From positions 1,754 to 65,753 of the forward strand of contig CP011214.1 in assembly GCA_001029755.1 (NCBI GenBank): 64,000 nt of DNA, in the 5' to 3' direction. Below the pieces are notes generated by a model. It ran no database searches, was not told the DNA's origin, and worked only from the letters and a program-made list of their open reading frames with translations. This document shows, in pieces, positions 1,211 through 52,129 of this stretch. How positions within the stretch are numbered: the stretch's first letter is position 1; each line of letters starts with the position of its first letter. The position numbers and the translations under genes are program-made. Source of the DNA: Candidatus Woesebacteria bacterium GW2011_GWF1_31_35 (GTDB lineage: Bacteria > Patescibacteriota > Microgenomatia > UBA8517).

Positions 1211-2050
1211 TCAAGAGGTTGTATACTTAAAGTAGGCAATGGGAAAATGAAGACTAGATAGAAAGCTCCAAAGGAATCCATTTACACCATCAAGTATCCC
1301 CAAGTGTCTAAAATATAAATTAAAAAATGTAAAAGTTGGTTTAATAAATATATAACTCAAAAATTCAGCTAAACCTTTTGAAACTTTTTTATCTTTTAAT
1401 TCTTTTGCATGTAAATCTGTATAACGATTCATTCTCCAAAAATATTTTTTTAAAGTTGGAGAATCAAAATGTAACAAATCATTATTTAACCAGCCTACTT
1501 TCCCATTAATTTCTATTTGTTCATGCACTGATTTTTGAGGAAACTTGGCAAAACCATTTTTAACAAGTCTTATTACCCCATCAGGATAAACACCTGCATG
1601 AATTAATGGTTTCCCTAAAAACATATTCCTTCTTGGTATAAAATACCCAGTTATTTCACCCCTATCTCTTCCTATTTTTCCATCTCTTTCTTCAATTAAC
1701 ATTTGGTGTCTTAAAAAAAGTTCGGAAGGTTTATTTTGTTTTAATTTATTAGTTATTACATCCTTTATTTCTTTTGAAAGTTCTGGAGTTAATGCTTCAT
1801 CAGCATCCATTTGTAAAATCCATTCATTTGAAGCTTTTTCTAATGCAATTTGTTTTGTTATATGAAAAATATCATGATGTGGTTCAAGATATACTTTTGC
1901 TCCAAAACTTTCTGCAATCTTTTTTGTTTTATCTTTAGAATATTCATCAACAATAATTATTTCATCTGCAATTGTCTTTACAGATTCTAAACATCTCCCA
2001 ATATTTTCTTCTTCGTTTCTTGTTGCAAGTACTACAGATAGTTTATTCAT
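1211..2050 (-). CDS. GT2 family glycosyltransferase
   Basis: The N-terminus reads LSVVLATRNEEENIGRCLESV...IIIVDEYSKDKT...MDADE (GT-A DxD architecture). Confidence 0.8.
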   Translation of the reverse strand: MNKLSVVLATRNEEENIGRCLESVKTIADEIIIVDEYSKDKTKKIAESFGAKVYLEPHHDIFHITKQIALEKASNEWILQMDADEALTPELSKEIKDVITNKLKQNKPSELFLRHQMLIEERDGKIGRDRGEITGYFIPRRNMFLGKPLIHAGVYPDGVIRLVKNGFAKFPQKSVHEQIEINGKVGWLNNDLLHFDSPTLKKYFWRMNRYTDLHAKELKDKKVSKGLAEFLSYIFIKPTFTFFNLYFRHLGILDGVNGFLWSFLSSLHFPIAYFKYTTS

Positions 2051-2052
2051 AT

Positions 2053-3372
2053 TTATTTAGCTATAATTCCTTTGATTTTAAAATAATCTGCAATTGACTT
2101 ATTAATCCAATCACTTTGATCTGATTTTGTTTGTGCATTAGCAACCAATCCAGCTTCTGGTAATTTATTTATGACAACTAATTCATCTTTACCAGAACTT
2201 GAAGCTTCTTTAATTTTTAAAATCATTTGATCAAAAGCTAAACTATAATTTCTTGCAATATAGACATCTCCACCTAAAGTAGAAGTTAAACTAAAAGAAG
2301 AAATAAAAAGAATAAATGAAAACAATAATGTCAATAATTTATTTTGCATTATACCTCTTGCATGCCAAGAAACAATAAAAACAGACATTAGTACTAAAAA
2401 CATTAAAGTAATATCTGACCTATCAGGTGGGAGCCTACCTAATGTTTTAAAGGCAGGGAAAACATAAAGAATACTTGCTATCACCAATAAACTTAAAATT
2501 GATCCTATGTTTAAATATATCTTTTCTTTATCAATATAAATCCTTTTATTAAATTGGCTAAATACGTACGATAAAACTGCAGTTAATGATGAAAGAAAAA
2601 TAATATTTTTAATAATTAAATAATAAAGTAGTTTTGGACCTTCTTGAACAGAATAAAAGATACTTCCTAATATATTCATCGAATCAGATCCTCCACCAAC
2701 TGCTCTTATACTATTTCCAGGTGACAAATAAACTATTAACAGAGAAGTTATTGATGAAATAAACATAATAAGTAAATATTTCTTCGATTTTTTGAAGATG
2801 AATACATAAACTAAACTTCCCAATAGTATTAAATTAACCATTAAACCAAATGTCTCATTTCCTCCGACCGCTAATAATGTAAATAAAAATACTAATAATA
2901 ATTTCTTTGAAGAAAGAGCCAGTAATATAAAAATAATTGGCCAAAGATAAGTTATGGTTCCTGAAAGCCAGTACCAAGTTTCCATTTTGTTAGGTGTAAT
3001 AAAATAAAGAGAAACTAAAGCCATGGATGATAATATATAAAGATAAACATTCTTTAATTTAAGATTTAAAAATGACCTGAAAAATGACAATAATGCGAAA
3101 AATAATAAAGAGAGAGTAATAATTGAAAAAAGAGAGGAATTTCCAGAATTAGAAGAATATGCTCCAAAGAAAGTTTGTAAAAATGTTGAGGTAAATCTTC
3201 CACTCCAAGACAGATACCAACTTAATTGCGCTTTCCAGAAACCTTGACTAAAAACCGTTGATCCATAGGCAAAATCATCAGCAGACATTCTATTAAATGG
3301 AATTATTGAAAAAATTTTTAAAAATCCCATTAAGGCTAATACTGACATTGAAAACCAAGCATATTTTTTCAT
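2053..3372 (-). CDS. Polytopic membrane protein, GT-C-like (acidic ADD motif in first external loop)
   Basis: It is 439 aa with at least 10 predicted hydrophobic helices. The motif ...NRMSADDFAYGS follows the first helix. Confidence 0.45.
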   Translation of the reverse strand: MKKYAWFSMSVLALMGFLKIFSIIPFNRMSADDFAYGSTVFSQGFWKAQLSWYLSWSGRFTSTFLQTFFGAYSSNSGNSSLFSIITLSLLFFALLSFFRSFLNLKLKNVYLYILSSMALVSLYFITPNKMETWYWLSGTITYLWPIIFILLALSSKKLLLVFLFTLLAVGGNETFGLMVNLILLGSLVYVFIFKKSKKYLLIMFISSITSLLIVYLSPGNSIRAVGGGSDSMNILGSIFYSVQEGPKLLYYLIIKNIIFLSSLTAVLSYVFSQFNKRIYIDKEKIYLNIGSILSLLVIASILYVFPAFKTLGRLPPDRSDITLMFLVLMSVFIVSWHARGIMQNKLLTLLFSFILFISSFSLTSTLGGDVYIARNYSLAFDQMILKIKEASSSGKDELVVINKLPEAGLVANAQTKSDQSDWINKSIADYFKIKGIIAK

Positions 3373-3377: not shown

Positions 3378-5036
3378 TTAATTAGCTACTATTCTAAAGT
3401 ATTTAAAACTATTTGATCCATATATTTCTTTTACAATATTAGCTTCATTTGAAATTTCTTCAGGAGTCCCTACTAAAAGTGAGTTTGGATAAATTGGTCT
3501 CATCTCATCATATTTAATACTTAAAAAGTGATATTTGTCAAAATTTTTAACTGTTGAAAATCCATATCCATCTCTCGCTGTCAAAGTATGATTTTTTTGA
3601 AAAGTTAAAGGATCATACTTTGTATAGAAAAGAAATAGTATGTACGGTTGGTCATATCTATCAGTAACCACTATATTTTTATACTTATCTTTGTTTTCAT
3701 TAACATAAGTAACCAATTCTTTTAAACCATATTGACTAGAATATGGATATTCTTTTGCCATATGAACCCAATACATATGTTCATATCTTAAAAATCCCAA
3801 AATAGTAGCTACAGATATTAAAACTAACAATAAAATTCTTATTATTTTATTTTTATTTTTTGTTATTAAACCAATAATAGTCAGCAGTCCCAGGCTACTT
3901 ATAATAGTTAATGGTATTACCATGTTTTGAGCTCTAAGTGCGTGCGGTGATTGAAAAGTTAAAGCAGCTGCCATTGGTGCGATAATTAACCAATAAAATA
4001 TAAGTTTAATCGGCTTTTCTTTGAATCTTTTAATTAAAACTATAATTCCAACAGCTAAGAATAAAATATCGGTTAAATACATTTCCCCTGTTTCAGGAAC
4101 TTTATTTCTTTGAATGTCATCTCCTGATAAAAACAAGAATAAACCATGGAAGTGTTCACCCCAATTATCCATAAAAGCTAAACCATAATTAACTACTTTA
4201 TTATGAATTAACTTTGCAGGAAGACTCCTAAAATCACCATGTTCAGTTCTCTGTTCTTCAATTCTTGAAAGTGGTCCTGGATCTGCAAAAAGTCCTACCC
4301 CAGTGACTCTAGAAGATACAGCTCCCTTTGTGAAATCTAATATAAGAGGTATTAATAGTAAAAATGATACAGACAGGCTTATTATTATTACTTTAAGGTT
4401 CTTTTTAACAAATAAATCTCTAAAGTAGATTACCAACAGTCCTAAACCCAGTAGTGGAACTACAATTCTTGCAGCATGATATGTATATAAAGATAATATA
4501 AATGAAAAAAAGCTAAGTATTAAATAGTAAGCTTTTTCCCTGGTATTTATAAACTTAATAAATAACCAGGTTCCCAAAACTATAAAAAATGTAGCCAGAT
4601 TTACTTCCCAACCACCTCTACTAAAATGAATATGCCAAGGTGAGATTGCAAGCATACCACTTGTAATAAGTGCCAAATTTTCGTTTTCTTTAATATTTAA
4701 ATACTTTTTAAAAATCTCTAAAGTAAGATAATAGAGAACTAAAACTGTTAATACACCAGCAAAAGCTCCCGGAATTCTTACAGCCCACTCATTTAAACCT
4801 AATAATTTTACGAAAGGAATAACTGTATAAAAATAAAGCCCTGGTTTATAGTCATTAAATGATTGGAAATGGATAGGCCAAGAATTTCCATGTTCATCCA
4901 TTCCTGTTTTAATTAAAGAATATGCATTGTATCCAATAGCTGCCTCATCAGCGTTAAAGGCGGGGTAGGAATCAAGCCTCCAGAATCTTAATCCAAAAGC
5001 TAAGACAATAATTAAAATAAATAATAACTTTTTCAT
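3378..5036 (-). CDS. GT39/PMT/ArnT-like GT-C membrane glycosyltransferase (paralog 1)
   Basis: The N-terminus has ...NADEAAIGYNAYSLIKTGMDEHGNSWPIHFQSFNDYKPGLYFYT with the PMT/ArnT-family DE motif. It has many TM helices and a C-terminal soluble domain with ...YKNIVVTDRYDQPYILFLFYTKYDP. Confidence 0.8.
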   Translation of the reverse strand: MKKLLFILIIVLAFGLRFWRLDSYPAFNADEAAIGYNAYSLIKTGMDEHGNSWPIHFQSFNDYKPGLYFYTVIPFVKLLGLNEWAVRIPGAFAGVLTVLVLYYLTLEIFKKYLNIKENENLALITSGMLAISPWHIHFSRGGWEVNLATFFIVLGTWLFIKFINTREKAYYLILSFFSFILSLYTYHAARIVVPLLGLGLLVIYFRDLFVKKNLKVIIISLSVSFLLLIPLILDFTKGAVSSRVTGVGLFADPGPLSRIEEQRTEHGDFRSLPAKLIHNKVVNYGLAFMDNWGEHFHGLFLFLSGDDIQRNKVPETGEMYLTDILFLAVGIIVLIKRFKEKPIKLIFYWLIIAPMAAALTFQSPHALRAQNMVIPLTIISSLGLLTIIGLITKNKNKIIRILLLVLISVATILGFLRYEHMYWVHMAKEYPYSSQYGLKELVTYVNENKDKYKNIVVTDRYDQPYILFLFYTKYDPLTFQKNHTLTARDGYGFSTVKNFDKYHFLSIKYDEMRPIYPNSLLVGTPEEISNEANIVKEIYGSNSFKYFRIVAN

Positions 5037-6721
5037 TTAACTTCTATAATTCTAAATGCCGTATCCCTATTATTAAGATATTTAATTTCCTTAATTAGCC
5101 TAAACTCCTTTTCATCATTTGAGTCAGCTGGCGGAATACGAAGTGTATCTGCAACAAAAAGAGTTCCCCTATCTCCCCTATTTATAGACCAATCAATTGG
5201 ACCAAATTCAATATTGTCTAATTTTGTAATATAACCAACATCTCCAATGTACTCACTATTTACAAAACTTGTATTTTTTTGATATTTAGAAGGATCATAT
5301 TTTTGAAAAAATAGAAAGAAAATATATGGCTGTGCAAAACTTTGCTGAACAACAATTTTTTTGTAATTTCCTTGTATTGGTGTAATTGTCTCTACAACTT
5401 GTGAATAGCCATATGACCAAAGTTTGGAGTTGTGTGCTGAAACGTGTACAAAATAAGAATCTAAAAAGTAAGTTATGCTAACTAAATAAACCAAAAAGAC
5501 TATTGAGTAAAAATAAACTTTATATTTATTTTTGTTTATAAAGGTAATTAAACCACTAAGTCCAAATGTACAAATTATTATTAAAGGTATTGCCATATTA
5601 AAACTTCTAACTGCATGCACCTGATCACGTGACAAGACAGCAGGAAGAGGAGCTAATATTAGCCAAAAAAGAAAAAACAAATGTTCTTTCTTAAGCTTAT
5701 TTTTAAATATTTCAAAAAATCCTAAAATTAAAATTATTAAATCAGATAAAAGTAACATTCCTTGATAAGGTGCAGAATGCCTTAGATTTGAAAAATCTCC
5801 TTCGAAAAATAAAAACCTTCCTGAAAAATGATTAAACCAGCGTCCCATTATTCCCCGTTTAAAATTTAGATCTTCTGAATGGAATAGGTAATAACTTAAA
5901 CTTCCAATTTTCTCTTTTCCTTCATCAAGCATACTTTGTATGTATTCTTTAGGCCTTGGGTATGAAAAAACACTAAATACTTCAAGTCTTCCTGTTAAAC
6001 CAGTAAACATACTAAGAATTATTGGAGATGAAATTAATAGACCTAAAAGAAGCGATTGTGTTAAATATTTTTTTGGAAACTTAACTAAATCTTTAAAATA
6101 AAAAATTAATAAAAGTACTACCACCAAACCAGATGAAAGCTTTGCACCTTGGTAAGCTAAGAGTGTAAGAGCAAAGAAAAGAGAACTTATAATTAGGAAT
6201 TTATTCTTTTCTAGTGATTTAAGGAAAAAATAAATTCCTGCTAAAGTTAAAGTAAGTGACAAATTTACTTCCCACGCTCCACGAGAGAAATAAATAAGCC
6301 ATGGATTAAAAGCTCCTATAAAACCTGTAAATATGGCAAACTTTTTTCCAAAGAATCTATTTGCAATTAAATATATTAAATAAATTGAAATTACTCCAAA
6401 AATTGCAGAAGGTAAACGAACTGAAAATTCACTTAGACCTAAAACAGCAACAAATGGAACTGTCGTATAAATATATAGTCCAGGTTTATAATCCCCAAAT
6501 GATTTAAAAATTAAAGGCAAGGTTTTTCCATATTCATCTTTTCCTGTTTTCAAAATTGAATATGCGTTATACCCTAAGGAAGCTTCATCTGGAGTTAGAT
6601 GTGGAGGGATATTATCTAGGTTCCATACTCTAATAATTGCTGCCAATAAAATTATTAGCCACAATATATTTTTATTTAAAAGTTTAATTATTTTCATATA
6701 GTTCAAAGGCAACACTTCCAT
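5033..6721 (-). CDS. GT39/PMT/ArnT-like GT-C membrane glycosyltransferase (paralog 2)
   Basis: It carries TPDEASLGYNAYSILKTGKDEYGKTLPLIFKSFGDYKPGLYIY and the same C-terminal domain motif (QPYIFFLFFQKYDP). It overlaps the upstream gene by 4 bp. Confidence 0.8.
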   Translation of the reverse strand: MEVLPLNYMKIIKLLNKNILWLIILLAAIIRVWNLDNIPPHLTPDEASLGYNAYSILKTGKDEYGKTLPLIFKSFGDYKPGLYIYTTVPFVAVLGLSEFSVRLPSAIFGVISIYLIYLIANRFFGKKFAIFTGFIGAFNPWLIYFSRGAWEVNLSLTLTLAGIYFFLKSLEKNKFLIISSLFFALTLLAYQGAKLSSGLVVVLLLIFYFKDLVKFPKKYLTQSLLLGLLISSPIILSMFTGLTGRLEVFSVFSYPRPKEYIQSMLDEGKEKIGSLSYYLFHSEDLNFKRGIMGRWFNHFSGRFLFFEGDFSNLRHSAPYQGMLLLSDLIILILGFFEIFKNKLKKEHLFFLFWLILAPLPAVLSRDQVHAVRSFNMAIPLIIICTFGLSGLITFINKNKYKVYFYSIVFLVYLVSITYFLDSYFVHVSAHNSKLWSYGYSQVVETITPIQGNYKKIVVQQSFAQPYIFFLFFQKYDPSKYQKNTSFVNSEYIGDVGYITKLDNIEFGPIDWSINRGDRGTLFVADTLRIPPADSNDEKEFRLIKEIKYLNNRDTAFRIIEVK

Positions 6722-8360
6722 CCAAAAAATTAATTGTCTTTATTTTACTCCAATCTGCTGGAGCGTTTTTGGGACTTGTTACAAGAAGGCATTTTGCTTG
6801 CCTACAATCCACTATTCTTTTACTTTCTTGAATAAACTTATAACCTTCTTTAGGTATCTGCCAATCATTAACAAAATAGTATTTATCAAATCCATCAACC
6901 CAATACCAACCTGCTTGATAAAACCTATTTAAATTTTTATCATTCCTATACCAATTAGAATTAAATGCACTATAGAAAAGAATAAATTCATGCGGTTCTC
7001 CATATTTTTTAGTAATTATTATCTTTGCATAATTATCATTATTCTCTTTTATGTAACTAACTACTTCTAAATATCCATATTGCCAACTTTCGGAATATTT
7101 ATTTTTATAATCAGTAAAATATTTCATTAAATAATTTTCAAAAAATAAAAATAATATAACTACATATAAAAATATGAATAATAATCTATTTTTTCCTTTA
7201 ATTTTTTTAATAACATAGTTAACACCAAGCGAAGTTAAAATCATTGGTATTGGAAGCATAGTAATTGCACGTAATACATGTGGGTCTTCTCTAGTTAAAC
7301 TACTAGCAATTGGTCCTAATAAAATCCAAGATAAAAGTAAATAACTTTCTTTGGTTTTTAGTTTCAATAAATAAATAAACCCAATTATTAAAAATGGAAA
7401 ATTAATTAAATAAATAAGACCATTTTTTGGAAGACTAAATTGATAATTTGATCCACCTTCTAAAATCAAAAACTTCGGGGAAAAATGGCTAAAATAATTT
7501 TTAATAAATTCTTTCGAAAAATACGTAATTTTATTTGATAGTATTCTAGGGATTGGGTCAGGAGCCTTTATTTTTTTTCTTAATTCAATTATTTTATTTG
7601 TTGCCCCTTCATCTAATATTGCCACCTTAGAATACCTTGCAGATCCTGAAGAACTAACAAGTTGATAAAACATTGGAACAAAAAAAATTGCTAAGAAAAT
7701 TAGTATTTTTTTGGCTATAATTTTATTTCCTTCAAAAAAACCTTTAAATTCATTTTTATAAATTAATAATAAAGATAATAAAAATAACGGAGTAAAAATA
7801 CGATATGAGTTATATGTCCAAACAGTTAAGCTAAAGAAAAGCGTAGAAAATATTAAATACTTAACTTTTAAACTATTAATAAATTTAATAAGGAAATAAA
7901 CCCCTAAAATAAATAAGAATAAGGCTAAGTTAGCCTCAAAAGCAGGTCTTCCTAAAAAGAAAGTCCATGGTTCAATTGTAACCAAAAAAGCAGAAAACAA
8001 AGCTATCCTTTTATAACTTTTTACAAATTTAAGATTATCTTTTAAAAGTTCTACCATTAATAAATACGTTACCCAGATAGTTCCAATCCCAGCTAAAACT
8101 GAGGGTAATCTAACAGCAAAAGAATTAATTCCAAAGAAAAATTCTGAAATTGAAGTTAAATAAATATAAACAGGTAATTTAAAATCCCCATAAGCTTTAA
8201 AAATTAAAGGCATTATTTTCCCCCACTCATCTTTTCCTGAAGTTAGAATTGAAAAAGCATTATAACCATGACTAATTTCATCCCAATTTAAAGAAGGAGG
8301 GTTGGAATTTATAAACAAAAACCTTGTAACAACAGTTAAAATTAAAATTAAATAAATCAT
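6684..8360 (-). CDS. GT39/PMT/ArnT-like GT-C membrane glycosyltransferase (paralog 3)
   Basis: It carries NWDEISHGYNAFSILTSGKDEWGKIMPLIFKAYGDFKLPVYIY. It is polytopic. Confidence 0.8.
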   Translation of the reverse strand: MIYLILILTVVTRFLFINSNPPSLNWDEISHGYNAFSILTSGKDEWGKIMPLIFKAYGDFKLPVYIYLTSISEFFFGINSFAVRLPSVLAGIGTIWVTYLLMVELLKDNLKFVKSYKRIALFSAFLVTIEPWTFFLGRPAFEANLALFLFILGVYFLIKFINSLKVKYLIFSTLFFSLTVWTYNSYRIFTPLFLLSLLLIYKNEFKGFFEGNKIIAKKILIFLAIFFVPMFYQLVSSSGSARYSKVAILDEGATNKIIELRKKIKAPDPIPRILSNKITYFSKEFIKNYFSHFSPKFLILEGGSNYQFSLPKNGLIYLINFPFLIIGFIYLLKLKTKESYLLLSWILLGPIASSLTREDPHVLRAITMLPIPMILTSLGVNYVIKKIKGKNRLLFIFLYVVILFLFFENYLMKYFTDYKNKYSESWQYGYLEVVSYIKENNDNYAKIIITKKYGEPHEFILFYSAFNSNWYRNDKNLNRFYQAGWYWVDGFDKYYFVNDWQIPKEGYKFIQESKRIVDCRQAKCLLVTSPKNAPADWSKIKTINFLDGSVAFELYENN

Positions 8361-9937
8361 GGTTCAATTAATAGAAACGCTTCTTTTCCGTTTAAATAAT
8401 ATATTGTTTTTACAATTTTTCCCTTTTCTCTTGTCCCATCTAAAAAGTCCCAAGGAGAACCAATTAATAATACATTTTCTTTATTCATATAATCTTCTTG
8501 ATTTGGTCTTCTGAATTTAATCTCTGATCTATGATTTCCAGTCTCTAAAAAGAAATCCCTATCCCACTTACAATAAATTAAAACATAGAGATAAGGTAAA
8601 CCAGTATTTAAAGGCCCTTCTTCCCCAAAAGTATCTGTAATTACTATTTCTTTATATTTATCTATATTTTCACAAGCGTAAATAACAGCATCTTTATACC
8701 CATATTGCCAAGACTCAGAATAAAATCTTGGAAACTGTTTTGTGTAAATATCAAATAAATAAATAAAATTAACCAGAACTAATACAAAATAAATCAAAAC
8801 TACCTTTTTAAATTTAAATCTATTCAATAAGTATTCAAAACCAGAAGCCATAACTATTCCAAAAAAAGGAATCCATACCAAAGCTCTTAGGGGATGTTGT
8901 TCATTCATGGTTAGGGAAGCAGGAAACGGTCCTGCAAAAAACCAGAACAGGGCAAGTGATTTTAATTTGTTATTCTTTGATTTAGCTAAGTAATATATCC
9001 CTACTAAAAATAAGGGTAAATCTATTATCATTAATAAACCCAAATCAGGATATCCTGGAGGTGTAAATTGCATTCCTTTCCAAAACAAAAATCTTAAATC
9101 GTAGTAATTTAGATATTTACTCAACCAGTGACTGTAAACTAAATAGATATCATTGTTAAATAGCCTTTCACCCAAATTTTTATAATTTCCGTTGTGCATT
9201 ATTTTTACTAAAGAACTTTCTCTTAATATTGATGTTGAAAAAGCTCTTTGACTAATCGCAGGAGTGAAAAATGCGAGTTTAATAAAAGGAATTGCAAAAA
9301 TTAAAGTTATCAAAATAAACGTTATTATTTTTTTCTTGGGTTTAAAAATAAAGAAAAGAAAAATGACAATAAGTGGAACAAATAATCTTTCTGCATGATA
9401 TGACCAAACAGAAAGACTCATAAATACCGCTGCTAAAATTGCATTTAACATATTTTTATTTTTAGACCAGGAGATAAAAACTGTAGTACCCAAGACAAGA
9501 AAGAAAAGAGCCGTAACTGCCTCAAAAGAAGCTCTTGAAAAGTGTATATGCCAAGGTAAAATTGCTAACCAAAAACCTGCCAAGATAGAAGATTTAAAAG
9601 ACAATCCTAGATTAATTAACAATAAAATAAATACAACAACAGTTAGAGATCCTATCAGTGCTACTGGAAATCTAATTCCAAATTCATTTAAACCAAAGAC
9701 GGCAATTGATGGTACAGTTAAATAAATATTAACTGGTGGTTTATAATCACCCGCTGATCTAAAAGCTAAGGGTAATAACTCACCAAACTCGTCTCTGGCA
9801 GTTTTTAGGATTGAATATGCATTGTAACCAATAGCCACCTCATCCATTGAAAAAGACACTGGATATTTAGTTAAATTCCAAGTTCTTAAAAAGAATGCTA
9901 ACAGAAATATACTAATAATTATTAATTTTTTAGCCAT
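8357..9937 (-). CDS. GT39/PMT/ArnT-like GT-C membrane glycosyltransferase (paralog 4)
   Basis: It carries SMDEVAIGYNAYSILKTARDEFGELLPLAFRSAGDYKPPVNIY. Confidence 0.8.
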   Translation of the reverse strand: MAKKLIIISIFLLAFFLRTWNLTKYPVSFSMDEVAIGYNAYSILKTARDEFGELLPLAFRSAGDYKPPVNIYLTVPSIAVFGLNEFGIRFPVALIGSLTVVVFILLLINLGLSFKSSILAGFWLAILPWHIHFSRASFEAVTALFFLVLGTTVFISWSKNKNMLNAILAAVFMSLSVWSYHAERLFVPLIVIFLFFIFKPKKKIITFILITLIFAIPFIKLAFFTPAISQRAFSTSILRESSLVKIMHNGNYKNLGERLFNNDIYLVYSHWLSKYLNYYDLRFLFWKGMQFTPPGYPDLGLLMIIDLPLFLVGIYYLAKSKNNKLKSLALFWFFAGPFPASLTMNEQHPLRALVWIPFFGIVMASGFEYLLNRFKFKKVVLIYFVLVLVNFIYLFDIYTKQFPRFYSESWQYGYKDAVIYACENIDKYKEIVITDTFGEEGPLNTGLPYLYVLIYCKWDRDFFLETGNHRSEIKFRRPNQEDYMNKENVLLIGSPWDFLDGTREKGKIVKTIYYLNGKEAFLLIEP

Positions 9938-10515
9938 ATAACTCTTCCTATTATAAATAACATATACAAAACCGCCAATATTAAATATTTTCGATTTACA
10001 GATTTAGAAGCAATGTTAATATATATTAATAAAACAGGAAGAAGGAAGGCTAAATTTCTTTTACCAAGTAAAAATGTAAATAAAGATATTCCCAGTGTCC
10101 AAAAAATAAGTTTAAAGTTTCTATTTTTTATTAAGCTTATTAAACCCAAAACCCAAAATGGGAAAAGTATTCCTGCTATTGGTTCTACGCCAGAAGGTGA
10201 AAATCTAGTTCCATCTCCTGCCTGGAAATAAGGTCTAGGTGAGGTGTAACTTAAAAATGAGAAAAAGTTATCAAGCATTACATAGACTTTGTTATAATAA
10301 ATTTTTGATAATAAGTCTTCTTTTTCATTTCCAAAAGCATTCCACCTAACTTCTTGGATTTTCATAAGATTATCACTAGAAAAAATCGAACTAATATTTT
10401 TTTTGAAATATGAAGGTGCCATTTTCCATTCGAGTACTATACTTTTTAAATTAAATAAATTCCACCAAAATCCTGCTGTCAATATTATTAGTAATAGTGT
10501 TTTTTTATTCTTCAT
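9922..10515 (-). CDS. Short (197 aa) membrane ORF resembling only the central region of the GT39 paralogs; truncated paralog or possible pseudogene remnant
   Basis: The stretch ...SPRPYFQAGDGTRFSPSGVEPIAGILFPFWVLGLISLIKNRNFKL aligns by eye with YFSPSFLILDGPAETTYGMVKGFGVLSYIEIFGLFFLIINFKKFK of the paralog at 10528..11979. It lacks both the N-terminal DE-motif region and the C-terminal soluble domain. Confidence 0.4.
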   Translation of the reverse strand: MKNKKTLLLIILTAGFWWNLFNLKSIVLEWKMAPSYFKKNISSIFSSDNLMKIQEVRWNAFGNEKEDLLSKIYYNKVYVMLDNFFSFLSYTSPRPYFQAGDGTRFSPSGVEPIAGILFPFWVLGLISLIKNRNFKLIFWTLGISLFTFLLGKRNLAFLLPVLLIYINIASKSVNRKYLILAVLYMLFIIGRVIWLKN

Positions 10516-10527
10516 TTTTAAAAAAAA

Positions 10528-11979
10528 TTACTTGAATACGAACTTTCCAAGTTTATATTTTGGCATTTGATCCACCCAATTAACTCCAATTTCTTCAAAC
10601 TTCCAAAGTTTAGTTTCCTCTTGATAGAACTTGGGGTCAATCTTTCCTGCAAATGCAATATAAATATGAGGCTCTGAAAGTGTTTTAGAAACTATTATCT
10701 CATCAAATTTATCAGAATTATTAGTTATCTCAACTGCTTTTTCTAAATTACCTGAAAGCATACCGTCGGCTGATTTAGTTGGACTTTCAATTAAATATTT
10801 TTGAAAAAAGACAATAAAACCAAATAGAACAACTAGACCTAATAAGTATTTGACATTTTTGTTACTTTCTATTAATTTATAAATCCCTAACCCTGCTAAA
10901 ATTTGTAAAACAGGAATCATTGATATTGCTCGATTAGCAGCATAGCCTACTCCTGTTGATAAACTTGCTGGAAGTGGTGAAATTAAAAGCCATAATATTA
11001 AAAAATAAATAATTTTTTTGTCTTTAAATTTTTTAAAATTAATAATTAAAAAAAATAATCCAAATATTTCAATATAAGATAAAACTCCAAAACCTTTAAC
11101 CATTCCATAAGTTGTTTCGGCTGGACCATCTAAAATCAAAAAACTAGGAGAAAAGTATTGAAGATAATTATTTATAAATCTACTTATAACGACTTGGTAT
11201 TTATTATGAAGTAACTTTGCTAGAGTTGGGTTCATTCCATTTTGAATTAAAACAATTTTTGCCTTAGCACCATCTTCTAATGCACCACTGGTAATACTTC
11301 TTTCCGCGACTCTTGCACCAGCTCCTAGATTAAAGGTATAAATTGTTAATATTACAAACAATCCAAAAACTAATAGTGGTTTAAGTATTTTTTTAGATAA
11401 ATTGTTTTTAAAAAATACTAATAACAAAATTATTATTAAAGGTGTAATTAACTTGGCTGAATGATAAGTAAACATATTTACACCAAAGACAGTCATGGAT
11501 AAATAGTATTTTTCTACTAAAAATAAATAAATTCCCAAAGGAAGAAATAGTGTAATTAAATTGGCTTCAAACGCTCCTCTACTCATCATAATATGCCAAG
11601 GACTAATAGTTAGTAAAAACGCAATTAAAATACCATATTTTTTATCGGAAAAAAGTTTATTTGAAAGTAAGTACAAAACATAAACAGCTAAGGTACCAAT
11701 TAAAGCATTTGGAAGCCTTACTGCAAACTTAGTTAATCCAAATATAAAAACAGAAGGAATTGTTAAATAAGCATAAATAGGTGCTTTATAATCTCCAAAG
11801 GATTTTAGAACTAAAGGAAATGCATTCCCCCATTGGTCTTTACCTGTTTTTAAAATTGAATAAGCATCATATCCAAAAGAGGCTTCATCAGGCGTAAATC
11901 CTACTGGATATTTATCAAGTGCTACAACACGAAGAAGAAAAGATAAAGCTAAAATGAGAGGTAATATCCACTTTTTCAT
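10528..11979 (-). CDS. GT39/PMT/ArnT-like GT-C membrane glycosyltransferase (paralog 5)
   Basis: It carries TPDEASFGYDAYSILKTGKDQWGNAFPLVLKSFGDYKAPIYAY, and its C-terminus has SEPHIYIAFAGKIDPKFYQ. Confidence 0.8.
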   Translation of the reverse strand: MKKWILPLILALSFLLRVVALDKYPVGFTPDEASFGYDAYSILKTGKDQWGNAFPLVLKSFGDYKAPIYAYLTIPSVFIFGLTKFAVRLPNALIGTLAVYVLYLLSNKLFSDKKYGILIAFLLTISPWHIMMSRGAFEANLITLFLPLGIYLFLVEKYYLSMTVFGVNMFTYHSAKLITPLIIILLLVFFKNNLSKKILKPLLVFGLFVILTIYTFNLGAGARVAERSITSGALEDGAKAKIVLIQNGMNPTLAKLLHNKYQVVISRFINNYLQYFSPSFLILDGPAETTYGMVKGFGVLSYIEIFGLFFLIINFKKFKDKKIIYFLILWLLISPLPASLSTGVGYAANRAISMIPVLQILAGLGIYKLIESNKNVKYLLGLVVLFGFIVFFQKYLIESPTKSADGMLSGNLEKAVEITNNSDKFDEIIVSKTLSEPHIYIAFAGKIDPKFYQEETKLWKFEEIGVNWVDQMPKYKLGKFVFK

Positions 11980-13232
11980 TTAATCTCATTATATCGCGTG
12001 TAGAGCTTCAAGAGAAGGATAAACAATAAAAATCCTAAAATTCTTGGCATTAATCTGTCTCCAAATGATAAAAATGAAATAATTATATTTATCTTTGGAG
12101 TAAACCAAAAGTTATACATTCCTAATAAACTAATAGTTGTAATTAACCAATACTCCCAATTAGCTACAACGCCTGTTGTTAACAAAATGGTTAAATATGG
12201 GAAAAGTGGATAAAGATATCTTTCATGCATATTTGTCAAAAGCACAAAACTCGCAAAAGCTGTTAAAGCTAGCGTCCATGCAACTACTTTTAAATCACTA
12301 TTTTTATAAACTTTAAAAAGAAGTGGTATATAGGAAATAGTAAATAAAATATAACCCCAGATTTGATAGGTAAACCCAAAGAAAGGTAGAAAGTCTTTGA
12401 TTTCAACCGCAGAGTCCTTCACCCCAAAGATAGTTCCCCATAAATTAAATGCATTAGCAGTAACCACGTGTAATTGATCAATAAAAACTTTATCCTTATA
12501 AAGATAATAAAGCCAAAAGAAAGGTTCACCCTGTGAGAAAGGTAAGGTTATTAATGCAACCACAGTCAAAGACAACACTAATGACAAAATATACTTTTTG
12601 AAAGAATACTTTTGACGTATTGCAATAATTAAAAATATAGGAGCAAAAATTAAAAGGGAAGCTTTAATATAAATTGATAATACAAAGGCAATAATTGCAA
12701 ACAATAACTTTTTTTTATTGAGTAGATAAAATGCAAGAAGAGCAAAAAAATTAATCACTGAGTCATACTGTCCCCAAACTGATGAGTTATACCAAATAAC
12801 TGGGTTTATTAAAAAAATTAAACTTGCCCATTTTTTATTTGTCCATTTATAAATTAAATAGGCAATACCAAAATCCGCTAGAATGGCGGGGAGTTTAAGT
12901 ATGGCTGGATATAAATTTGTTTCAAAGAAAGTAATTACAATTGATGGAAATGCAGGAATTTTTGTATTAATTATCCAAAAGATGCCAAAGATAAATTCAA
13001 AAAATTTTCTAATCCCTGCAAACATATATATCGTCCCAGGAGGTTGATTTGGCCAAGTAAAATTCCAAACATTTTCTGTATAAAACTTTGCGGGACCATA
13101 CTGCCAAAACCTAATACCCCAATCAAAATGATTATTTAAATCAGGATGCCAAATTAAAAAGGATAATATAAGTCTAAAACAGAAAGCTACAAAAAAAATC
13201 CAAAATATCTTCGATCTAATTAGTTTTCGCAT
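11976..13232 (-). CDS. Polytopic membrane protein, GT-C-like (DUF2029/GT87-like); paralog of 13216..14472
   Basis: It is 418 aa. It shares the motif WYNSSVWGQYDS (versus WYNSSLWGQTES in its neighbour) and the C-terminal MHERYLYP (versus MHERYFYP). Confidence 0.5.
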   Translation of the reverse strand: MRKLIRSKIFWIFFVAFCFRLILSFLIWHPDLNNHFDWGIRFWQYGPAKFYTENVWNFTWPNQPPGTIYMFAGIRKFFEFIFGIFWIINTKIPAFPSIVITFFETNLYPAILKLPAILADFGIAYLIYKWTNKKWASLIFLINPVIWYNSSVWGQYDSVINFFALLAFYLLNKKKLLFAIIAFVLSIYIKASLLIFAPIFLIIAIRQKYSFKKYILSLVLSLTVVALITLPFSQGEPFFWLYYLYKDKVFIDQLHVVTANAFNLWGTIFGVKDSAVEIKDFLPFFGFTYQIWGYILFTISYIPLLFKVYKNSDLKVVAWTLALTAFASFVLLTNMHERYLYPLFPYLTILLTTGVVANWEYWLITTISLLGMYNFWFTPKINIIISFLSFGDRLMPRILGFLLFILLLKLYTRYNEIK

Positions 13233-14472
13233 AATCTTTTAAAAATAAATAGATTAGATAAATAAAAAATATCAGATTCAATGTTAGTAGAATTTTTTCA
13301 AAAAAATGATTCGAAAATATGCTAACCAATATATCAATTTTTGGTACCCACCAAAAATGATATAGGTTCAATAAATGCATTGTAGAAAAGAAGTAAAAAA
13401 GTTTCCTAATTTTTTTATCAGCTACAGCTACAGGAATCAAAAGAACCAAAACAGGGTAAAAATATCTTTCATGCATCCTTGGTAAAAACATGAATGCGAT
13501 AAATGATAAAATCGTTGCCATCAATAAAATAGACTTCGTTCCAAAATTCTTTTTTAGTAACAAAATAAATGGTGCAATAGCAGAAATGATATAAACTCCT
13601 TTTCCTAAAATATTTGCAGGTATTCCCAAAAATAGAGACGTATCAGGCCTATTATCAAAACCAAAAAATAATGCCCAAAAATTAAAGGCGTTGGCAACCA
13701 TATATCCAAGTACACCATTCAAACTTCTTAAATAAAATGATATTACCCATGTTAATAATCCATTTGGATGGAAAGGAAAATATAAACTAAGGATAAGAAT
13801 TAGAGAAAACAGCATACCAATAAATATTTCTTTAATTTTACCTTTCCTAAAAAGCCAATAAACAAATACAGGGAAAGCAAAAAACGCTGTTGGCTTAGTC
13901 AATAATGCCAAAGTATAAATAAGCATCGAACTTTTTAATTTTCCTTTATGAAGTAAATAAAACGCACCAATCATTGGAAGCGCAAAGATACTTTCTGTCT
14001 GTCCCCAAAGACTGGAGTTGTACCAAAAAACAGGAAAAAAGGCAAATATTTTGGCAGCCAAAAGTCCGGCTTTTTTATCTTTAAGATCTTTAGCAAAAAG
14101 ATATAAAACGTATATTATTCCTAAATCAGAAAATATTGCAGGTAGTTTGTTAAAAACATACCACCCCTGAGGTGATTCTAACCAGAAAATCAAATTTGAA
14201 GGGAAAATTTTAATGTTTACATTTAAAAACCAGACAACTTGCCAAAAGATATTGTGTAAAATACCTGTAAACCAAAAAAGATATGACGTCACTGGTGGAT
14301 AAATCGGTTGCGTGGCATTAGCAATATTATGATCATAAAAACCAGTTAATCCATTGGAAACTAGATCTCTTGTCCACCAATAAAAATCATTGACGTCTCC
14401 ATGATACCCTAAGAAAGAAACAACAAGTCTTAATAATAATGCCAGTAAAATTATCTTAAATATTTTTTTCAT
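13216..14472 (-). CDS. Polytopic membrane protein, GT-C-like (DUF2029/GT87-like); paralog of 11976..13232
   Basis: See the neighbouring paralog. The motif HGDVNDFYWW follows the first helix. Confidence 0.5.
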   Translation of the reverse strand: MKKIFKIILLALLLRLVVSFLGYHGDVNDFYWWTRDLVSNGLTGFYDHNIANATQPIYPPVTSYLFWFTGILHNIFWQVVWFLNVNIKIFPSNLIFWLESPQGWYVFNKLPAIFSDLGIIYVLYLFAKDLKDKKAGLLAAKIFAFFPVFWYNSSLWGQTESIFALPMIGAFYLLHKGKLKSSMLIYTLALLTKPTAFFAFPVFVYWLFRKGKIKEIFIGMLFSLILILSLYFPFHPNGLLTWVISFYLRSLNGVLGYMVANAFNFWALFFGFDNRPDTSLFLGIPANILGKGVYIISAIAPFILLLKKNFGTKSILLMATILSFIAFMFLPRMHERYFYPVLVLLIPVAVADKKIRKLFYFFSTMHLLNLYHFWWVPKIDILVSIFSNHFFEKILLTLNLIFFIYLIYLFLKDYAKTN

Positions 14473-14499
14473 GAAATATTAAATCTACTTGATTAATAA

Positions 14500-16218
14500 T
14501 CATTTTGCTTTTGTAAATAAGTAAAAAGCTGGTTCACCTGATGGAAATGCTATTGATTTAATCAAGGTCAGTCCATTTGGTTTTTTAGTAGGATCCATAA
14601 TCAGGTTCCAAGGAATTTCTTTTGCAGAAGCTAAATATAAATCTTTTTCTGTAATTACTTTTTCTAACCCATAAATTCCATTTTCATCTTTATTCGGAGA
14701 CCCAAAATAAAATTTACCGGTATGAGAAATTTTTCCAAAACCGGCAACTTCTACATCATTTCCTATAGGAAACTCTTTTTGCCAAAGAGAAGGTGGATAC
14801 TCATACCAACCAGCAAAAAATATCCAAGCAGGTTCATCTGCCATTGTAATTATTACTTTATCGTAATCTTTTTCAATTCCTTTAATGGTTTGGATTGATT
14901 CTTTCCAACCTGTGTGCCACCAACGTTCAGAATCCCAAGGATAGTGAATATAATATAAATGTAAGTAACTTCCAAACTCTAAAATTAAAATAGCAAAATA
15001 AATAATTATTACTATTTTTTTCATTTCAAATAACTTTTTAACTCCATATGAAATTAAAAATATTAGTGGTGGAAGAATCAAGATAAGACGAGTGGCATGA
15101 TTTCCGCCATCACGTGTTATGGAAGCCGGAATAATTCCTGCAATAATCCAAAATAGAATAAATAACTTTAATTTGAAATTTTGATTTTTGTCTGAAATAA
15201 ATAGAATTAAACCTAATATTATTGCAATAAATTCTACTTTATAAAATTCTCCTACCCCAGTTGACGAATGTCTTGGATTAGGATCTCCCTTGGCAAACAA
15301 AAATTCAACTGAAAGGCTTTCTAAAAAATTATTTGAAATAGTATTTCCCCAAAATACAAATTTATTATGCATTATCCTATCTAATAGTTTTGGAGATAAG
15401 CCAGTTCCAGTTTCACCTCTAAACCTACTATCTTGTAATCTTAATGTCCCCACTTCAGGTTCCACAATTGGATCTGAAAAAACACTTATATAATTAAATC
15501 TTTGTCCTCCACCAGAAAATAAAACTGCATAAGAAGTAATTCCGCCTAAAATTAAAAGAGTTATTAATGTATTTATTAAATATTTTTTTGGAAGAGAAAA
15601 TATTTCTTTCTTAAAAAAAATAATTAAAAATACTAAAAGAAAAGGAGTAAATAATTTCGCAGTACTATAAATTAATGGTGTTAAAACTAAAAGTCCTGCA
15701 GAAAGCCATAAATATTTCCCATTCTTCAAACTTTTAAAGAAGATATAAAGTCCAAAAAGTAAAAACGTTAATAACATTGTAACTTCAAAGCCAGTGCGGG
15801 AATATTGTAAATGCCAAGGATTAATTGCTAAAATTGCTGCTGAAATTAAACCCAAATTTTTATTATCAGTTAATTCTTTAATTAAAAGATAAATTCCTAA
15901 AATTCCTAATATCCCAAAAATGGCAGCAGGTAGACGAACACCTAAGGCGTTTATTCCAAAAATTGCTACGGTTGGAACTGCAGAGTATAGATATAAAGGT
16001 GTCCTCCATTCAGCTAAACTTTGAAAATGCAGTGGCATAAAATTTCCTGAATAATCTTTCCCTGTTTTTAAAATAGAATATGCATGATATCCAACATCTA
16101 ACTCGTCCCCAAAAAGTGAGACAGGATCAGAAGAAATCTTGTATAACCTCAAAAATGAAGCTACTAATAAAATTACTATTAATATGACGTTTTTAAAAAT
16201 TATCTTTTTCAAATTCAC
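14500..16218 (-). CDS. GT39/PMT/ArnT-like GT-C membrane glycosyltransferase (paralog 6)
   Basis: It carries FGDELDVGYHAYSILKTGKDYSGNFMPLHFQSLAEWRTPLYLY. It is polytopic with a C-terminal soluble domain. Confidence 0.75.
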   Translation of the reverse strand: MNLKKIIFKNVILIVILLVASFLRLYKISSDPVSLFGDELDVGYHAYSILKTGKDYSGNFMPLHFQSLAEWRTPLYLYSAVPTVAIFGINALGVRLPAAIFGILGILGIYLLIKELTDNKNLGLISAAILAINPWHLQYSRTGFEVTMLLTFLLFGLYIFFKSLKNGKYLWLSAGLLVLTPLIYSTAKLFTPFLLVFLIIFFKKEIFSLPKKYLINTLITLLILGGITSYAVLFSGGGQRFNYISVFSDPIVEPEVGTLRLQDSRFRGETGTGLSPKLLDRIMHNKFVFWGNTISNNFLESLSVEFLFAKGDPNPRHSSTGVGEFYKVEFIAIILGLILFISDKNQNFKLKLFILFWIIAGIIPASITRDGGNHATRLILILPPLIFLISYGVKKLFEMKKIVIIIYFAILILEFGSYLHLYYIHYPWDSERWWHTGWKESIQTIKGIEKDYDKVIITMADEPAWIFFAGWYEYPPSLWQKEFPIGNDVEVAGFGKISHTGKFYFGSPNKDENGIYGLEKVITEKDLYLASAKEIPWNLIMDPTKKPNGLTLIKSIAFPSGEPAFYLFTKAK

Positions 16219-16280: not shown

Positions 16281-17171
16281 TTAAGAAAACATAGAAAGGA
16301 TTGCCTCATCACTAACTTTCCCTTCCTTAATCTCTTTCTTTCTAGCCTTTAAAACAATCTTAAGACGCATCAATGCCATGAAAACTACTCTTAAGTAACC
16401 AGGGTGTTTTAAACTTCTACTTAATAATCCTACAATGTGTTTTTTGATTAAATTTTTACTGTGAATATTTTTCCAAATTACTAATAATTGATTTCTTTCC
16501 TTTACTCTTCCAACATATTTTTGTGGAAGTTTTGATATTGTTGACTCATGATGATGGATACAATTACCATTTGGTTCCCAAAGATTAATATAGCCTCTTT
16601 TGATTGCTCTATAACCTAAATCTACATCTTCCCAATAAAAAGGAGATAATAATTTTTCATCCATACCACCTAGTTCTTTCCATAAAGATTTTCTAAATAA
16701 TCCACTTCCACCGCTAACATAAAGGCAGGGATGAAGTGCATTATCCTCTTTTCCCATGGCAAGTTGAATATATCCGTCTCCAAAATATCCTTTTTCATAT
16801 CCATAATCTTTTTCATGCAAAGAAACCGCAAATACTTTCTTATTATCAAAATGGGGCAAAGAAGACTCCAAAAAATTAACTTCTGGAATTACATCAATAT
16901 TTATAAGAAGAATCAAATCTCCAGTGGATGCTCTAACTCCTGTATTTACACTAGCTGAAAACCCTCTATTTTTGGTATGTTTTATAAGTTTAATTCTTCC
17001 TTTAAAATTTTGAGTTAAAAATGAAACACTATCATCCCAAGAACCATCATCAACAATAATAATTTCACAAATATTATTTTTAGGGTTATTAGAGGCAGCT
17101 AAAAGTATTGGAAGATTTTTCTCCAAGATAGTTTTACCGTTTAAACTAGGCATTACAACAGATACTTTCAT
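16281..17171 (-). CDS. GT2 family glycosyltransferase
   Basis: It carries VSVVMPSLNGKT...IIIVDDGSWDDS...INIDV. Confidence 0.8.
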   Translation of the reverse strand: MKVSVVMPSLNGKTILEKNLPILLAASNNPKNNICEIIIVDDGSWDDSVSFLTQNFKGRIKLIKHTKNRGFSASVNTGVRASTGDLILLINIDVIPEVNFLESSLPHFDNKKVFAVSLHEKDYGYEKGYFGDGYIQLAMGKEDNALHPCLYVSGGSGLFRKSLWKELGGMDEKLLSPFYWEDVDLGYRAIKRGYINLWEPNGNCIHHHESTISKLPQKYVGRVKERNQLLVIWKNIHSKNLIKKHIVGLLSRSLKHPGYLRVVFMALMRLKIVLKARKKEIKEGKVSDEAILSMFS

Positions 17172-17176
17172 ATTAT

Positions 17177-17848
17177 TTATTTTCTAACCTTTACCAAGTG
17201 TAACATTTTTAAATGAAATTTTTTATCCACTTCCACCTTAAAACCGGCTTTTTTACAAAGTGTAGGAAGAAAGTTTTCTCTATATGTTTGAATATGAGTA
17301 TCTTTCCATACCCAACCTCTTGGATAAAAGGTTAACCATAACCACCAAACTATTTTAAATAAATCATTATCAGAAGGAACTAAAAATACCCCAAAACCAT
17401 TTTTCTTTAATACTCTTTTAACTTCAAGTAATACTTTTAAAGGATTCTCAACATGTTCTAATACTTCCATAATATAAACAGCATCAAATTCATCTGATTT
17501 AAATTTGAGTTCCTGTGCATCCCCCACTATAAATTTCATTTTTTTATTTTTCTTCCAATGTTTCTTTGCCCAATTAATTGAAGTCTTAATTACATCAATA
17601 CCAATTAAAGAAGAAGCATTAGTTGCATCCAATATTACTTTTGAAAACATTCCATCTGCACATCCTATGTCTAAAACTTTATCGACAGGTTCTGATATTT
17701 TGGTTACTTCCTCAAACCTTCTTTTGTGCCAATATCTTTGAAAAATATCTACCTTTAAAGACTGATAATACCAATCAGCAGGAACATTCTCATGAAGTTC
17801 AACAGCTTTTGATTTTTTTTTAATTTTATTCACTTTAATATTTGACAT
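17177..17848 (-). CDS. Class I SAM-dependent methyltransferase
   Basis: It carries VLDIGCADGMF (motif I) ...FDAVYIMEVLEHVENP...LKKNGFGVF. Confidence 0.8.
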   Translation of the reverse strand: MSNIKVNKIKKKSKAVELHENVPADWYYQSLKVDIFQRYWHKRRFEEVTKISEPVDKVLDIGCADGMFSKVILDATNASSLIGIDVIKTSINWAKKHWKKNKKMKFIVGDAQELKFKSDEFDAVYIMEVLEHVENPLKVLLEVKRVLKKNGFGVFLVPSDNDLFKIVWWLWLTFYPRGWVWKDTHIQTYRENFLPTLCKKAGFKVEVDKKFHLKMLHLVKVRK

Positions 17849-24638: not shown

Positions 24639-25519
24639 GCTTCAATTTCTCCTGTATATGCCTTAAAGGCAAAATCCTTTAATTTACTTCCATTTATAAT
24701 TTTAAGTAAATTTTCAAAAATAAATGGAGAATAATATTTAAGTCTATTTAATACATATTCGATACTTAATACATTGTAAGTTTTTCTAGTTTCTATATTT
24801 TTAAAACCAGCTTTCTCTAAAATTAATCTTAAAGATTTCTGGGAAAAATACATGATATGTTCTCCTGGTTTATAGTGATACCACAAAGGTCCAAGTAATT
24901 TATGCCATAAACCCCCAACATCCGGTGTAACAACTAAAACTAAACCATCCTTTTTTAAAACTTTGTGAACTAATTTCATTTCTATTAAGGGATCTTTAAT
25001 ATGTTCTATGACGTCTTGATAAGTGACAGCGTTAAAAGAATTAGGTTTAATGGTAGTTTTATCTAAAGTAGAATTTATTACATCTAAACCTCTTTTTTTT
25101 GCAAAATCATATGCAAATTTAGAAACTTCTAAACCCATTATATTTTTCCAACCTAATTTTCTTGCCCCATCTAAACAATCTCCCAAAGCAGAACCAACAT
25201 CTAATAATAATTCTTTTTTACCCAATTTTTTATATAATTTATTTAATCTGTCTGAAAAAGTTTTTCTATTTACTTTCATTCCTTCAAAATAATTTGCATA
25301 ACCCCCTTTTGGATTTTCATTTTGAAAATATGATTTATCGTATTGAGCTATGATATTCTCTGCAGGGTAAAAATCCCAAACCATGCTGCACTCATTACAT
25401 TTTGCTAATTTGTAACCACTCATGGCCCAATACTCAGAAGAGTTATTGTTTCCACATATCGGACAGGTATGTTTAATTCGTTTTACCATTTTGTATCCAT
25501 CTAGTACAAAAATCATCAT
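24623..25519 (-). CDS. Class I SAM-dependent methyltransferase with N-terminal Cys4 zinc ribbon
   Basis: It carries CPICGNNNS...CNECSMVW, then LLDVGSALGDCL...FNAVTYQDVIEHIKDP. Confidence 0.75.
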   Translation of the reverse strand: MMIFVLDGYKMVKRIKHTCPICGNNNSSEYWAMSGYKLAKCNECSMVWDFYPAENIIAQYDKSYFQNENPKGGYANYFEGMKVNRKTFSDRLNKLYKKLGKKELLLDVGSALGDCLDGARKLGWKNIMGLEVSKFAYDFAKKRGLDVINSTLDKTTIKPNSFNAVTYQDVIEHIKDPLIEMKLVHKVLKKDGLVLVVTPDVGGLWHKLLGPLWYHYKPGEHIMYFSQKSLRLILEKAGFKNIETRKTYNVLSIEYVLNRLKYYSPFIFENLLKIINGSKLKDFAFKAYTGEIEAWGQK

Positions 25520-52080: not shown

Positions 52081-52129
52081 TCATCATATCTTTTCGATTA
52101 GGAGAATTCAATCATTCTTCAATGAAAGT

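Follow-up and report, generated by a model that had tools for sequence, protein, structure and literature searches.

The window analysed here, a 64,000-nucleotide stretch of Candidatus Woesebacteria bacterium GW2011_GWF1_31_35 (contig CP011214.1), carries at positions 3378-16218 a tandem array of six genes for paralogous membrane glycosyltransferases of the GT-C type, with two further paralogs elsewhere in the window. The array was found to be an old, fixed operon and not a recent expansion, because its members form orthogroups that recur in equal order elsewhere and because 8357-9937, which has no counterpart in the first set of related loci, has orthologs of its own. The paralogs are probably active, non-redundant GT-C enzymes that move monosaccharides from polyprenyl phosphate to a surface acceptor, with a large outer loop and a C-terminal domain (C-domain) selecting that acceptor, and the operon as a whole probably builds or decorates a cell-surface glycan. 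The battery is unusually large and conserved; as a system it is an uncharacterised variant of a familiar enzyme type, and its mechanism marks no departure from known GT-C biology.

All seven open reading frames (ORFs) named in a preliminary description of this DNA were present at exactly the coordinates given there, on the minus strand, and an eighth, divergent paralog was added (lengths in amino acids, aa):

14500..16218, minus strand: GT-C paralog, 572 aa, first of the array, orthogroup '14500' (PMT_2, 4e-13)
10528..11979, minus strand: GT-C paralog, 483 aa, C-domain shortened, orthogroup '10528' (PMT_2/PMT)
8357..9937, minus strand: GT-C paralog, 526 aa, orthogroup '8357' (PMT, 2e-7)
6684..8360, minus strand: GT-C paralog, 558 aa, orthogroup '6684' (PMT_2)
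5033..6721, minus strand: GT-C paralog, 562 aa (554 aa from M9), the protein modelled
3378..5036, minus strand: GT-C paralog, 552 aa, last of the array, orthogroup '3378' (PMT, 4e-10)
22983..24638, minus strand: seventh GT-C paralog with the common C-domain, outside the tandem block (PMT, 5e-12)
25473..27224, minus strand: eighth, divergent paralog, 583 aa (BLASTP E to 2e-26 over ~470 aa)

Pfam models PMT (PF02366) and/or PMT_2 (PF13231) were matched by all seven over the N-terminal ~230 aa, each protein reaching the gathering threshold in at least one model (PMT, 24.6-46.4 against 22.7; PMT_2, 26.1-50.2 against 26.1); PF02366 was matched by six of the seven, and 8357-9937 was above threshold in PMT only, not in PMT_2. 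All-against-all BLASTP gave 27-36% identity across ~450-575 aa (E 1e-40 to 4e-92; 27-33% identity for 22983-24638 against the others), and with the Pfam matches this bore out the assignment of the seven as true paralogs of the GT39/PMT-like (PMT_2) clan. Public annotation of these proteins is already 'glycosyltransferase family 39 protein' or 'ArnT family glycosyltransferase'. The eighth paralog was 24-28% identical to the seven and has the transmembrane (TM) core in common with them; it had no Pfam match, and its C-terminal region was not matched by the C-domain profile. The N-terminal block (T/S)PDE..GYNAYS..KTGKDE.G..P..FKSFGDYK, reported previously, was recovered in a multiple alignment in which D30, D47, R87, P89, P133, R140, Y186 and R368 were invariant (3378-5036 numbering). 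Invariance extended across all eight paralogs for D30, D47, R87, R140, Y186 and R368, and E31 was present in seven of the eight, being Q in 25473-27224.

Related loci were collected by a scan with one genome per species, which yielded seven (L001-L007, metagenome-assembled genomes (MAGs) of Woesebacteria/Microgenomates; L003 and L005 are contig-truncated and display only the parts covered), and a more closely related contig, L011, was used in addition. Five paralogs (14500, 10528, 6684, 5033, 3378) had one-to-one orthologs in equal gene order in seven other Microgenomates genomes, the L001-L007 orthologs being 41-63% identical to the window proteins and the next-best paralog 26-38%. In every locus spanning the whole block, the order was a 14500-type gene, one or two genes of the 11976/13216 type (described below), 10528-type, 6684-type, 5033-type and 3378-type genes, and a GT2 gene orthologous to 1211-2050; individual loci hold extra inserted genes. 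A neighbour-joining tree of 42 proteins recovered the five orthogroups with bootstrap values of 90-100, no genome contributing more than one member to any of them; the branches that connect them were unresolved (bootstrap 19-48):

Orthogroup '14500': 50-61% identity in L001 and L004-L007, 67% in L011; bootstrap 100
Orthogroup '10528': orthologs of 545-610 aa in L001-L007 and 493 aa in L011 (7949-9430); bootstrap 98
Orthogroup '6684': 43-53% identity in L001-L007; bootstrap 90
Orthogroup of 5033-6721: >100 orthologs, 60-94% identity; bootstrap 100
Orthogroup '3378': 49-63% identity; bootstrap 100

No ortholog of 8357-9937 was found in the L001-L007 flanks, and a database search returned >100 orthologs at 47-72% identity from Woesebacteria, Shapirobacteria and Microgenomates, including one named Candidatus Shapirobacteria. 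Orthologs of six paralogs were present in L011 in equal order at 60-72% identity, and this contig reproduced the whole window arrangement, with a short 10528-type gene (493 aa), a small ORF (198 aa), an 8357-type gene and a DUF6056 protein. Since the short form of 10528-11979 and the small ORF both recur in L011, they were taken as conserved features and not as errors. On the synteny, the tree, the 8357-9937 orthologs and L011, the repeated tandem duplication proposed in the preliminary description stands for the deep past only, and not as a recent series.

The overlaps reported between neighbouring genes were confirmed (4, 38, 4, 16, 4 and 17 bp), although overlaps alone are no proof of the translational coupling deduced from them, and no consistent Shine-Dalgarno motif was seen at the array genes. 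For 5033-6721, the first ATG gives 562 aa; since most orthologs are ~554 aa, M9 (position 6697) is probably the start, in which case only 14 bp, not 38, would be shared with 6684-8360. Separately, a 1118-aa ORF of L006 (6597-9953) appears to join two proteins, a PTPS_related membrane protein of the 28632-30449 type and a GT-C of the 6684 type, the counterparts of which are adjacent, separate genes in L004 (6683-8374 and 8371-10038).

An AlphaFold2 (AF2) model of 5033-6721, generated from 61 aligned sequences (pLDDT 89, pTM 0.89), was compared with PDB using Foldseek. The top match was Cupriavidus metallidurans ArnT (5ezm; E 6.7e-8, TMq 0.54, full length of both proteins), followed by STT3/PglB/AglB, ALG9/ALG12, Pmt4, AftB/AftA and Pmt1/2, and the GT-C fold was supported by a Foldseek probability of 1.00 to ArnT, STT3, PglB, AglB, ALG9/12, Pmt4 and AftA/B. 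The only PDB match at the level of sequence was also ArnT, and was marginal (E 0.008, TM region alone). For topology, the model helices were combined with loop charge in all eight paralogs, where short loops with 23-49% K+R alternate with loops of 0-17% K+R. The predicted arrangement has 11 TM helices with the N-terminus inside and the C-terminus outside, and would place the first loop (DE motif), a large loop of ~86 aa and the C-terminal domain outside the membrane.

The C-domain was delimited as follows:

5036..5443, minus strand: C-terminal extracytoplasmic alpha/beta domain of 5033-6721, residues 427-562
3381-3761, 6687-7109, 8360-8734, 10531-10785 (partial), 14503-14943 and 22986-23411: equivalent segments of the other six paralogs

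Homology of the C-terminal regions, on which the preliminary description had made its proposal depend, was confirmed by leave-one-out profiles, any six recognising the seventh (E 1e-29 to 4e-8, the latter for 22983-24638). The domain is thus common to the seven as described, although it is 125-147 aa after the last TM helix and not ~150 aa, and the motif K(I/V)(I/V)(I/V)...QPYI.FLF..KYDP..YQ given for it is clean in 3378-5036 and 5033-6721 only and degenerate in the others. Modelled alone (AF2), the domain was compact alpha/beta (pLDDT 88). It had no Pfam match, its sequence profile had no match in PDB, and the structural search of PDB that had been suggested, run with Foldseek, gave weak fold similarity only (best E 0.5); kinship with the ArnT periplasmic domain or another solved domain found no support in either of these searches. 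In a profile search (E <=1e-3, among 1.84 billion), 2302 representative clusters carried the domain, and it stood at or near the C-terminus in 150 of the 150 matches listed, in proteins of ~520-600 aa or gene fragments; the cluster names, merely a generic 'ArnT-like glycosyltransferase', were uninformative on taxonomic range. Because Pfam and PDB lack a match and the clusters are this numerous, the C-domain was considered a widespread, family-specific module without a database model. A six-frame profile search of the window revealed no further copies beyond the seven.

In 10528-11979, the C-domain ends after ~85 aa and the last ~60-70 residues are missing (483 aa in the window, 493 aa in L011). 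No remnant of the missing piece was detected downstream of the gene by tblastn with ortholog tails, and shortening by a frameshift or assembly error was rejected, as no remnant was found and the short form recurs in L011.

Divergence was measured by region in the five orthogroups, as identity within an orthogroup, identity between paralogs, and the ratio of the two:

First outer loop: within 0.79, between 0.50, ratio 0.63
N-terminal membrane module: within 0.56, between 0.38, ratio 0.68
C-terminal TM bundle: within 0.43, between 0.26, ratio 0.62
Large outer loop: within 0.54, between 0.24, ratio 0.45
C-domain: within 0.51, between 0.23, ratio 0.46

Inside orthogroups the large outer loop and the C-domain are constrained like the rest of the protein, yet they are the most diverged regions between paralogs. 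At the level of sequence, this pattern is consistent with paralog-specific functions, for example acceptor recognition, being carried by these two parts. It leaves plausible, and does not prove, the earlier suggestion that different paralogs recognise different acceptors or positions, and it is likewise consistent with, but no proof of, the C-domain acting as an acceptor-binding module.

Beyond the homology, fold, conservation of catalytic residues, synteny and divergence pattern reported above, we infer the type of donor, the acceptor and the role of the C-domain. ArnC/DPM1-like GT2s of the locus would load polyprenyl-phosphate carriers in the cytoplasm, the loaded carriers would be flipped across the membrane, and each GT-C, acting at the outer face in the manner of ArnT, PMT, GtlB and Emb/Aft, would move one sugar from its carrier to an acceptor on the cell surface, for which a wall glycan containing rhamnose or a glycoprotein of the surface is most likely. 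On the analogy of residues listed for ArnT (PMC8306577), catalysis would fall to the invariant loop-1 Asp and binding of the carrier phosphate to the conserved Arg/Tyr, and the large outer loop and C-domain would be the specificity-determining parts that select the acceptor. As the duplications would predate the divergence of these genomes, with the paralogs kept in fixed order, each paralog probably has its own linkage or acceptor.

ArnT (GT83; undecaprenyl-phosphate-L-Ara4N:lipid A transferase; PDB 5ezm/5f15) is the best full-length structural match to the array protein, and its donor is a polyprenyl-phosphate monosaccharide, as is proposed for the array enzymes. The preliminary description had stated that the C-domain is not part of ArnT, which holds in so far as solved domains gave no match in sequence and a weak one in fold, but not for architecture, since in ArnT a membrane part of 13 helices is followed by a periplasmic domain at the C-terminus, the sequence of which is poorly conserved (PMC8306577). 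The architecture of the array proteins (11 inferred TM helices, against 13, and a C-terminal outer domain) therefore appears ArnT-like, although homology of the two domains could not be demonstrated; the full-length Foldseek alignment to 5ezm spans both proteins, and a search with the C-domain by itself does not recover ArnT. With the ArnT equivalog NF009784, only 22983-24638 gave a match (16.7 bits against a cut-off of 567), and matches to Agl23 (TIGR03663) reached 20-62 bits against 126, over the N-terminal ~200 aa only.

Between and beside the paralogs lie the following genes:

16281..17848, minus strand: GT2 (16281-17171) and SAM methyltransferase (17177-17848), upstream of the array (Pfam)
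13216..14472, minus strand: interleaved polytopic membrane protein, 418 aa, 32% identical to 11976-13232
11976..13232, minus strand: polytopic membrane protein, 418 aa, second of the interleaved pair
9922..10515, minus strand: small membrane protein, 197 aa, between two paralogs
2053..3372, minus strand: DUF6056/GT_STM0557_N-type membrane protein (GtrC-like GT-C), after the array (PF19528, 1e-21)
1211..2050, minus strand: GT2 closing the conserved operon (Pfam Glycos_transf_2, 4e-17)

Orthologs of 16281-17848 stand upstream of the 14500-type gene in L004, L005, L007 and L011, orthologs of 1211-2050 (52-70% identical) directly follow the 3378-type gene in L001, L002, L004, L006, L007 and L011, and 2053-3372 has an ortholog at the equal place in L011. 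The interleaved pair had no Pfam match, 11976-13232 giving a weak NCBIfam match to 'AZOBR_p60025 cell surface glycopolymer formation protein' (E 1e-4, below cut-off); one or two genes of this type occupy the equal position in every related locus covering it, and the pair may represent a further, unrecognised GT-C-like family. The small protein encoded at 9922-10515 is homologous only to the middle of the paralogs, that is, the large outer loop and the TM helices that follow it (hhalign probability 90%, E 1.4e-6, columns 241-377 of A1), and could be a partner subunit. Its 198-aa ortholog, 67% identical, stands directly upstream of an 8357-type gene in L011 (9420-10016) and L013 (139-735), and on this conservation at equal position the possibility of a pseudogene fragment was rejected.

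The array lies in a single very large cell-envelope glycosylation region extending from ~1200 to 50800 of the window, which has a G+C content of 26-33% and nearly every gene on the minus strand; the nearest proteins in the database bear the labels Candidatus Woesebacteria or Patescibacteria. The other components of this region include:

27184..28647, minus strand: Wzx/MOP-type flippase candidate (Pfam Polysacc_synt_3, 7e-53)
35393..36148, minus strand: small GT2, candidate polyprenyl-phosphate sugar synthase (NCBIfam below cut-offs)
43122..44243, minus strand: GT2 fused to a GtrA/DPMS TM domain, candidate polyprenyl-phosphate sugar synthase (Glycos_transf_2, 8e-26; GtrA_DPMS_TM, 8e-14)
31727-33253, 34074-35396, 36145-37629, 38629-40116 and 40858-42018: other PMT_2-type GT-Cs without the C-domain

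At least eight GT2s were counted, three of which come closest to polyprenyl-phosphate sugar synthases (ArnC, dolichyl-P hexose transferase, PgfS, AglJ, PpgS), below family cut-offs; for 35393-36148, which a GT2 at 40098-40817 resembles, the best NCBIfam matches were dolichyl-P hexose transferase, PgfS, AglJ and ArnC, all likewise below cut-offs. The region also encodes a PTPS_related membrane protein and several other polytopic proteins, two methyltransferases, a GT4, rmlA-D (dTDP-rhamnose) and a rhamnosyltransferase-like GT2. GT-A, flippase and GT-C candidates are thus all in the window, the GT-A and flippase candidates at 10-30 kb from the array and the GT2s below every equivalog cut-off. 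A scheme of GT-A, flippase and GT-C is established, including PMT_2-type GT-Cs (GtlB) and the decoration of rhamnan (PMC8035078), and the window holds candidates for all three components, together with rml genes, of such Gram-positive systems (CsbB/GtlA, GtcA and YfhO/GtlB; GacI/K/L on rhamnan). In those systems there is one GT-C per modification, whereas here one operon contains a fixed series of paralogs, with the candidates for GT-A and flippase lying apart from it.

Secreted or surface proteins were also observed in the window. At 59334-63962 (minus strand) lies the gene for a large surface/adhesin-type protein of 1542 aa, which has SdrD_B, DUF11 and eight SpaA_2 prealbumin-like domains and is a possible glycosylation substrate. 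A secreted-protein gene cluster at 51121-54965 (minus strand) holds two CAP-domain proteins (44% mutual identity), a signal peptidase S26-lamin-tail fusion and a camelysin/TasA-like (Peptidase_M73) protein, and resembles a SipW-TasA-type module.

By analogy, the nearest functional counterpart of the whole array is the mycobacterial embCAB/aft set of GT-C paralogs, although Emb and AftD are much larger and carry carbohydrate-binding modules of known type, no sequence similarity between them and the array proteins was detected, and the array has 6-8 members against three in EmbC-EmbA-EmbB. A wider proposal, which we put forward tentatively, is that the array and ~10 further GT-C-like proteins within 42 kb form an assembly line that builds an envelope glycopolymer specific to the candidate phyla radiation (CPR), nearly all of it outside the membrane, with the C-domain as a hitherto undescribed acceptor-recognition module and the conserved 197-aa protein as a dedicated partner subunit; such a line might be the Microgenomates counterpart of mycobacterial arabinan/mannan synthesis from polyprenyl-phosphate sugars.

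It is rather unlikely that the paralogs are strict PMT (GT39) protein O-glycosyltransferases, acting on Ser/Thr of different secreted or surface proteins (such as the 1542-aa SpaA-domain, TasA/camelysin-like and CAP-domain proteins nearby) and not on a polysaccharide. GT39 PMTs (Pmt1/2/4, bacterial Pmt) are alike in the Pfam PMT domain (the PF02366 matches in six of seven paralogs), in the loop-1 Asp-Glu motif and in the predicted 11-TM, N-in/C-out topology; Pmt4 and Pmt1/2 are among the fold matches, and the window also codes for a number of secreted or surface proteins. They differ, however, in that the array proteins are without MIR, the domain that defines loop 5 of eukaryotic PMTs, or PMT_4TMC (no match to either at E <=0.01 in the paralogs, which thus fall outside the classical eukaryotic PMTs), and end in a C-terminal globular domain that PMTs lack. 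The structure is matched better by ArnT and the catalytic subunits of OST than by PMTs, the Foldseek alignment to Pmt1/2 covering ~270 columns (E ~2e-3) and that to ArnT the full length. Moreover, a fixed set of 6-8 paralogs in one operon, accompanied by GT2s, a methyltransferase and other GT-C-like proteins, is closer to what a glycan assembled step by step would require, and the rml genes and Wzx-like flippase point to a polysaccharide.

Somewhat less probable again is an obligate hetero-oligomer of the kind formed by Pmt1-Pmt2 or EmbA-EmbB, in which some members would be non-catalytic (10528-11979, 9922-10515 and 25473-27224 as scaffolds or acceptor-binding subunits) and the gene order and overlaps would serve co-assembly. 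The 4-38 bp overlaps and fixed order would fit, as would the conserved stand-alone 'half' protein and the conserved C-domain-truncated member; the fold matches include 6p25 (Pmt1-Pmt2) and 7bvf (EmbA-EmbB), and a possible need of small GT-Cs for partner proteins has been suggested (PMC8035078). Against this, all eight full-length paralogs retain the loop-1 Asp and the remaining invariant residues, none of them looks dead, and hetero-oligomers would be compatible with, and not exclusive of, a set of active acceptor-selecting enzymes. A lineage-specific, fairly recent and still diversifying duplication series, as first described, is highly improbable and was refuted by synteny and tree, as the genes are adjacent, co-stranded and homologous but are only 27-36% identical to one another against 41-63% for five orthologs in equal order in seven genomes, with six L011 orthologs at 60-72%, 8357-9937 orthologs in Shapirobacteria and deep inter-orthogroup branches of bootstrap 19-48.

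CPR bacteria (Patescibacteria) have genomes of ~1 Mb and are host-dependent; to our knowledge almost nothing is known of their surface chemistry, on which attachment must depend. That more than 40 kb, in fixed order across the sampled related Microgenomates, is given to glycosyltransferases acting outside the membrane suggests a complex and conserved surface glycan. Searches of one literature library on glycosyltransferases of CPR, Patescibacteria, Woesebacteria and Microgenomates found no paper describing the array or the C-domain. The one-to-one orthogroups offer a ready set of enzymes for heterologous expression, and the unmatched C-domain is a candidate Pfam entry and a structural target.

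Three minor observations were made in the course of the analysis. The ORF at 47987-49903 (minus strand) for an RmlB-like dTDP-glucose 4,6-dehydratase is 638 aa long, ~2x the usual length, and Pfam covers only its first ~300 residues. At 33250-34077 (minus strand), a protein with a Bro-N domain, which is typical of phage or mobile-element proteins, is encoded amid the GT-C genes of the glycosylation cluster. The MAGs of L003, L005 and L006 are labelled 'uncultured Gammaproteobacteria bacterium' despite a syntenic Woesebacteria-type array, and are probably mislabelled.

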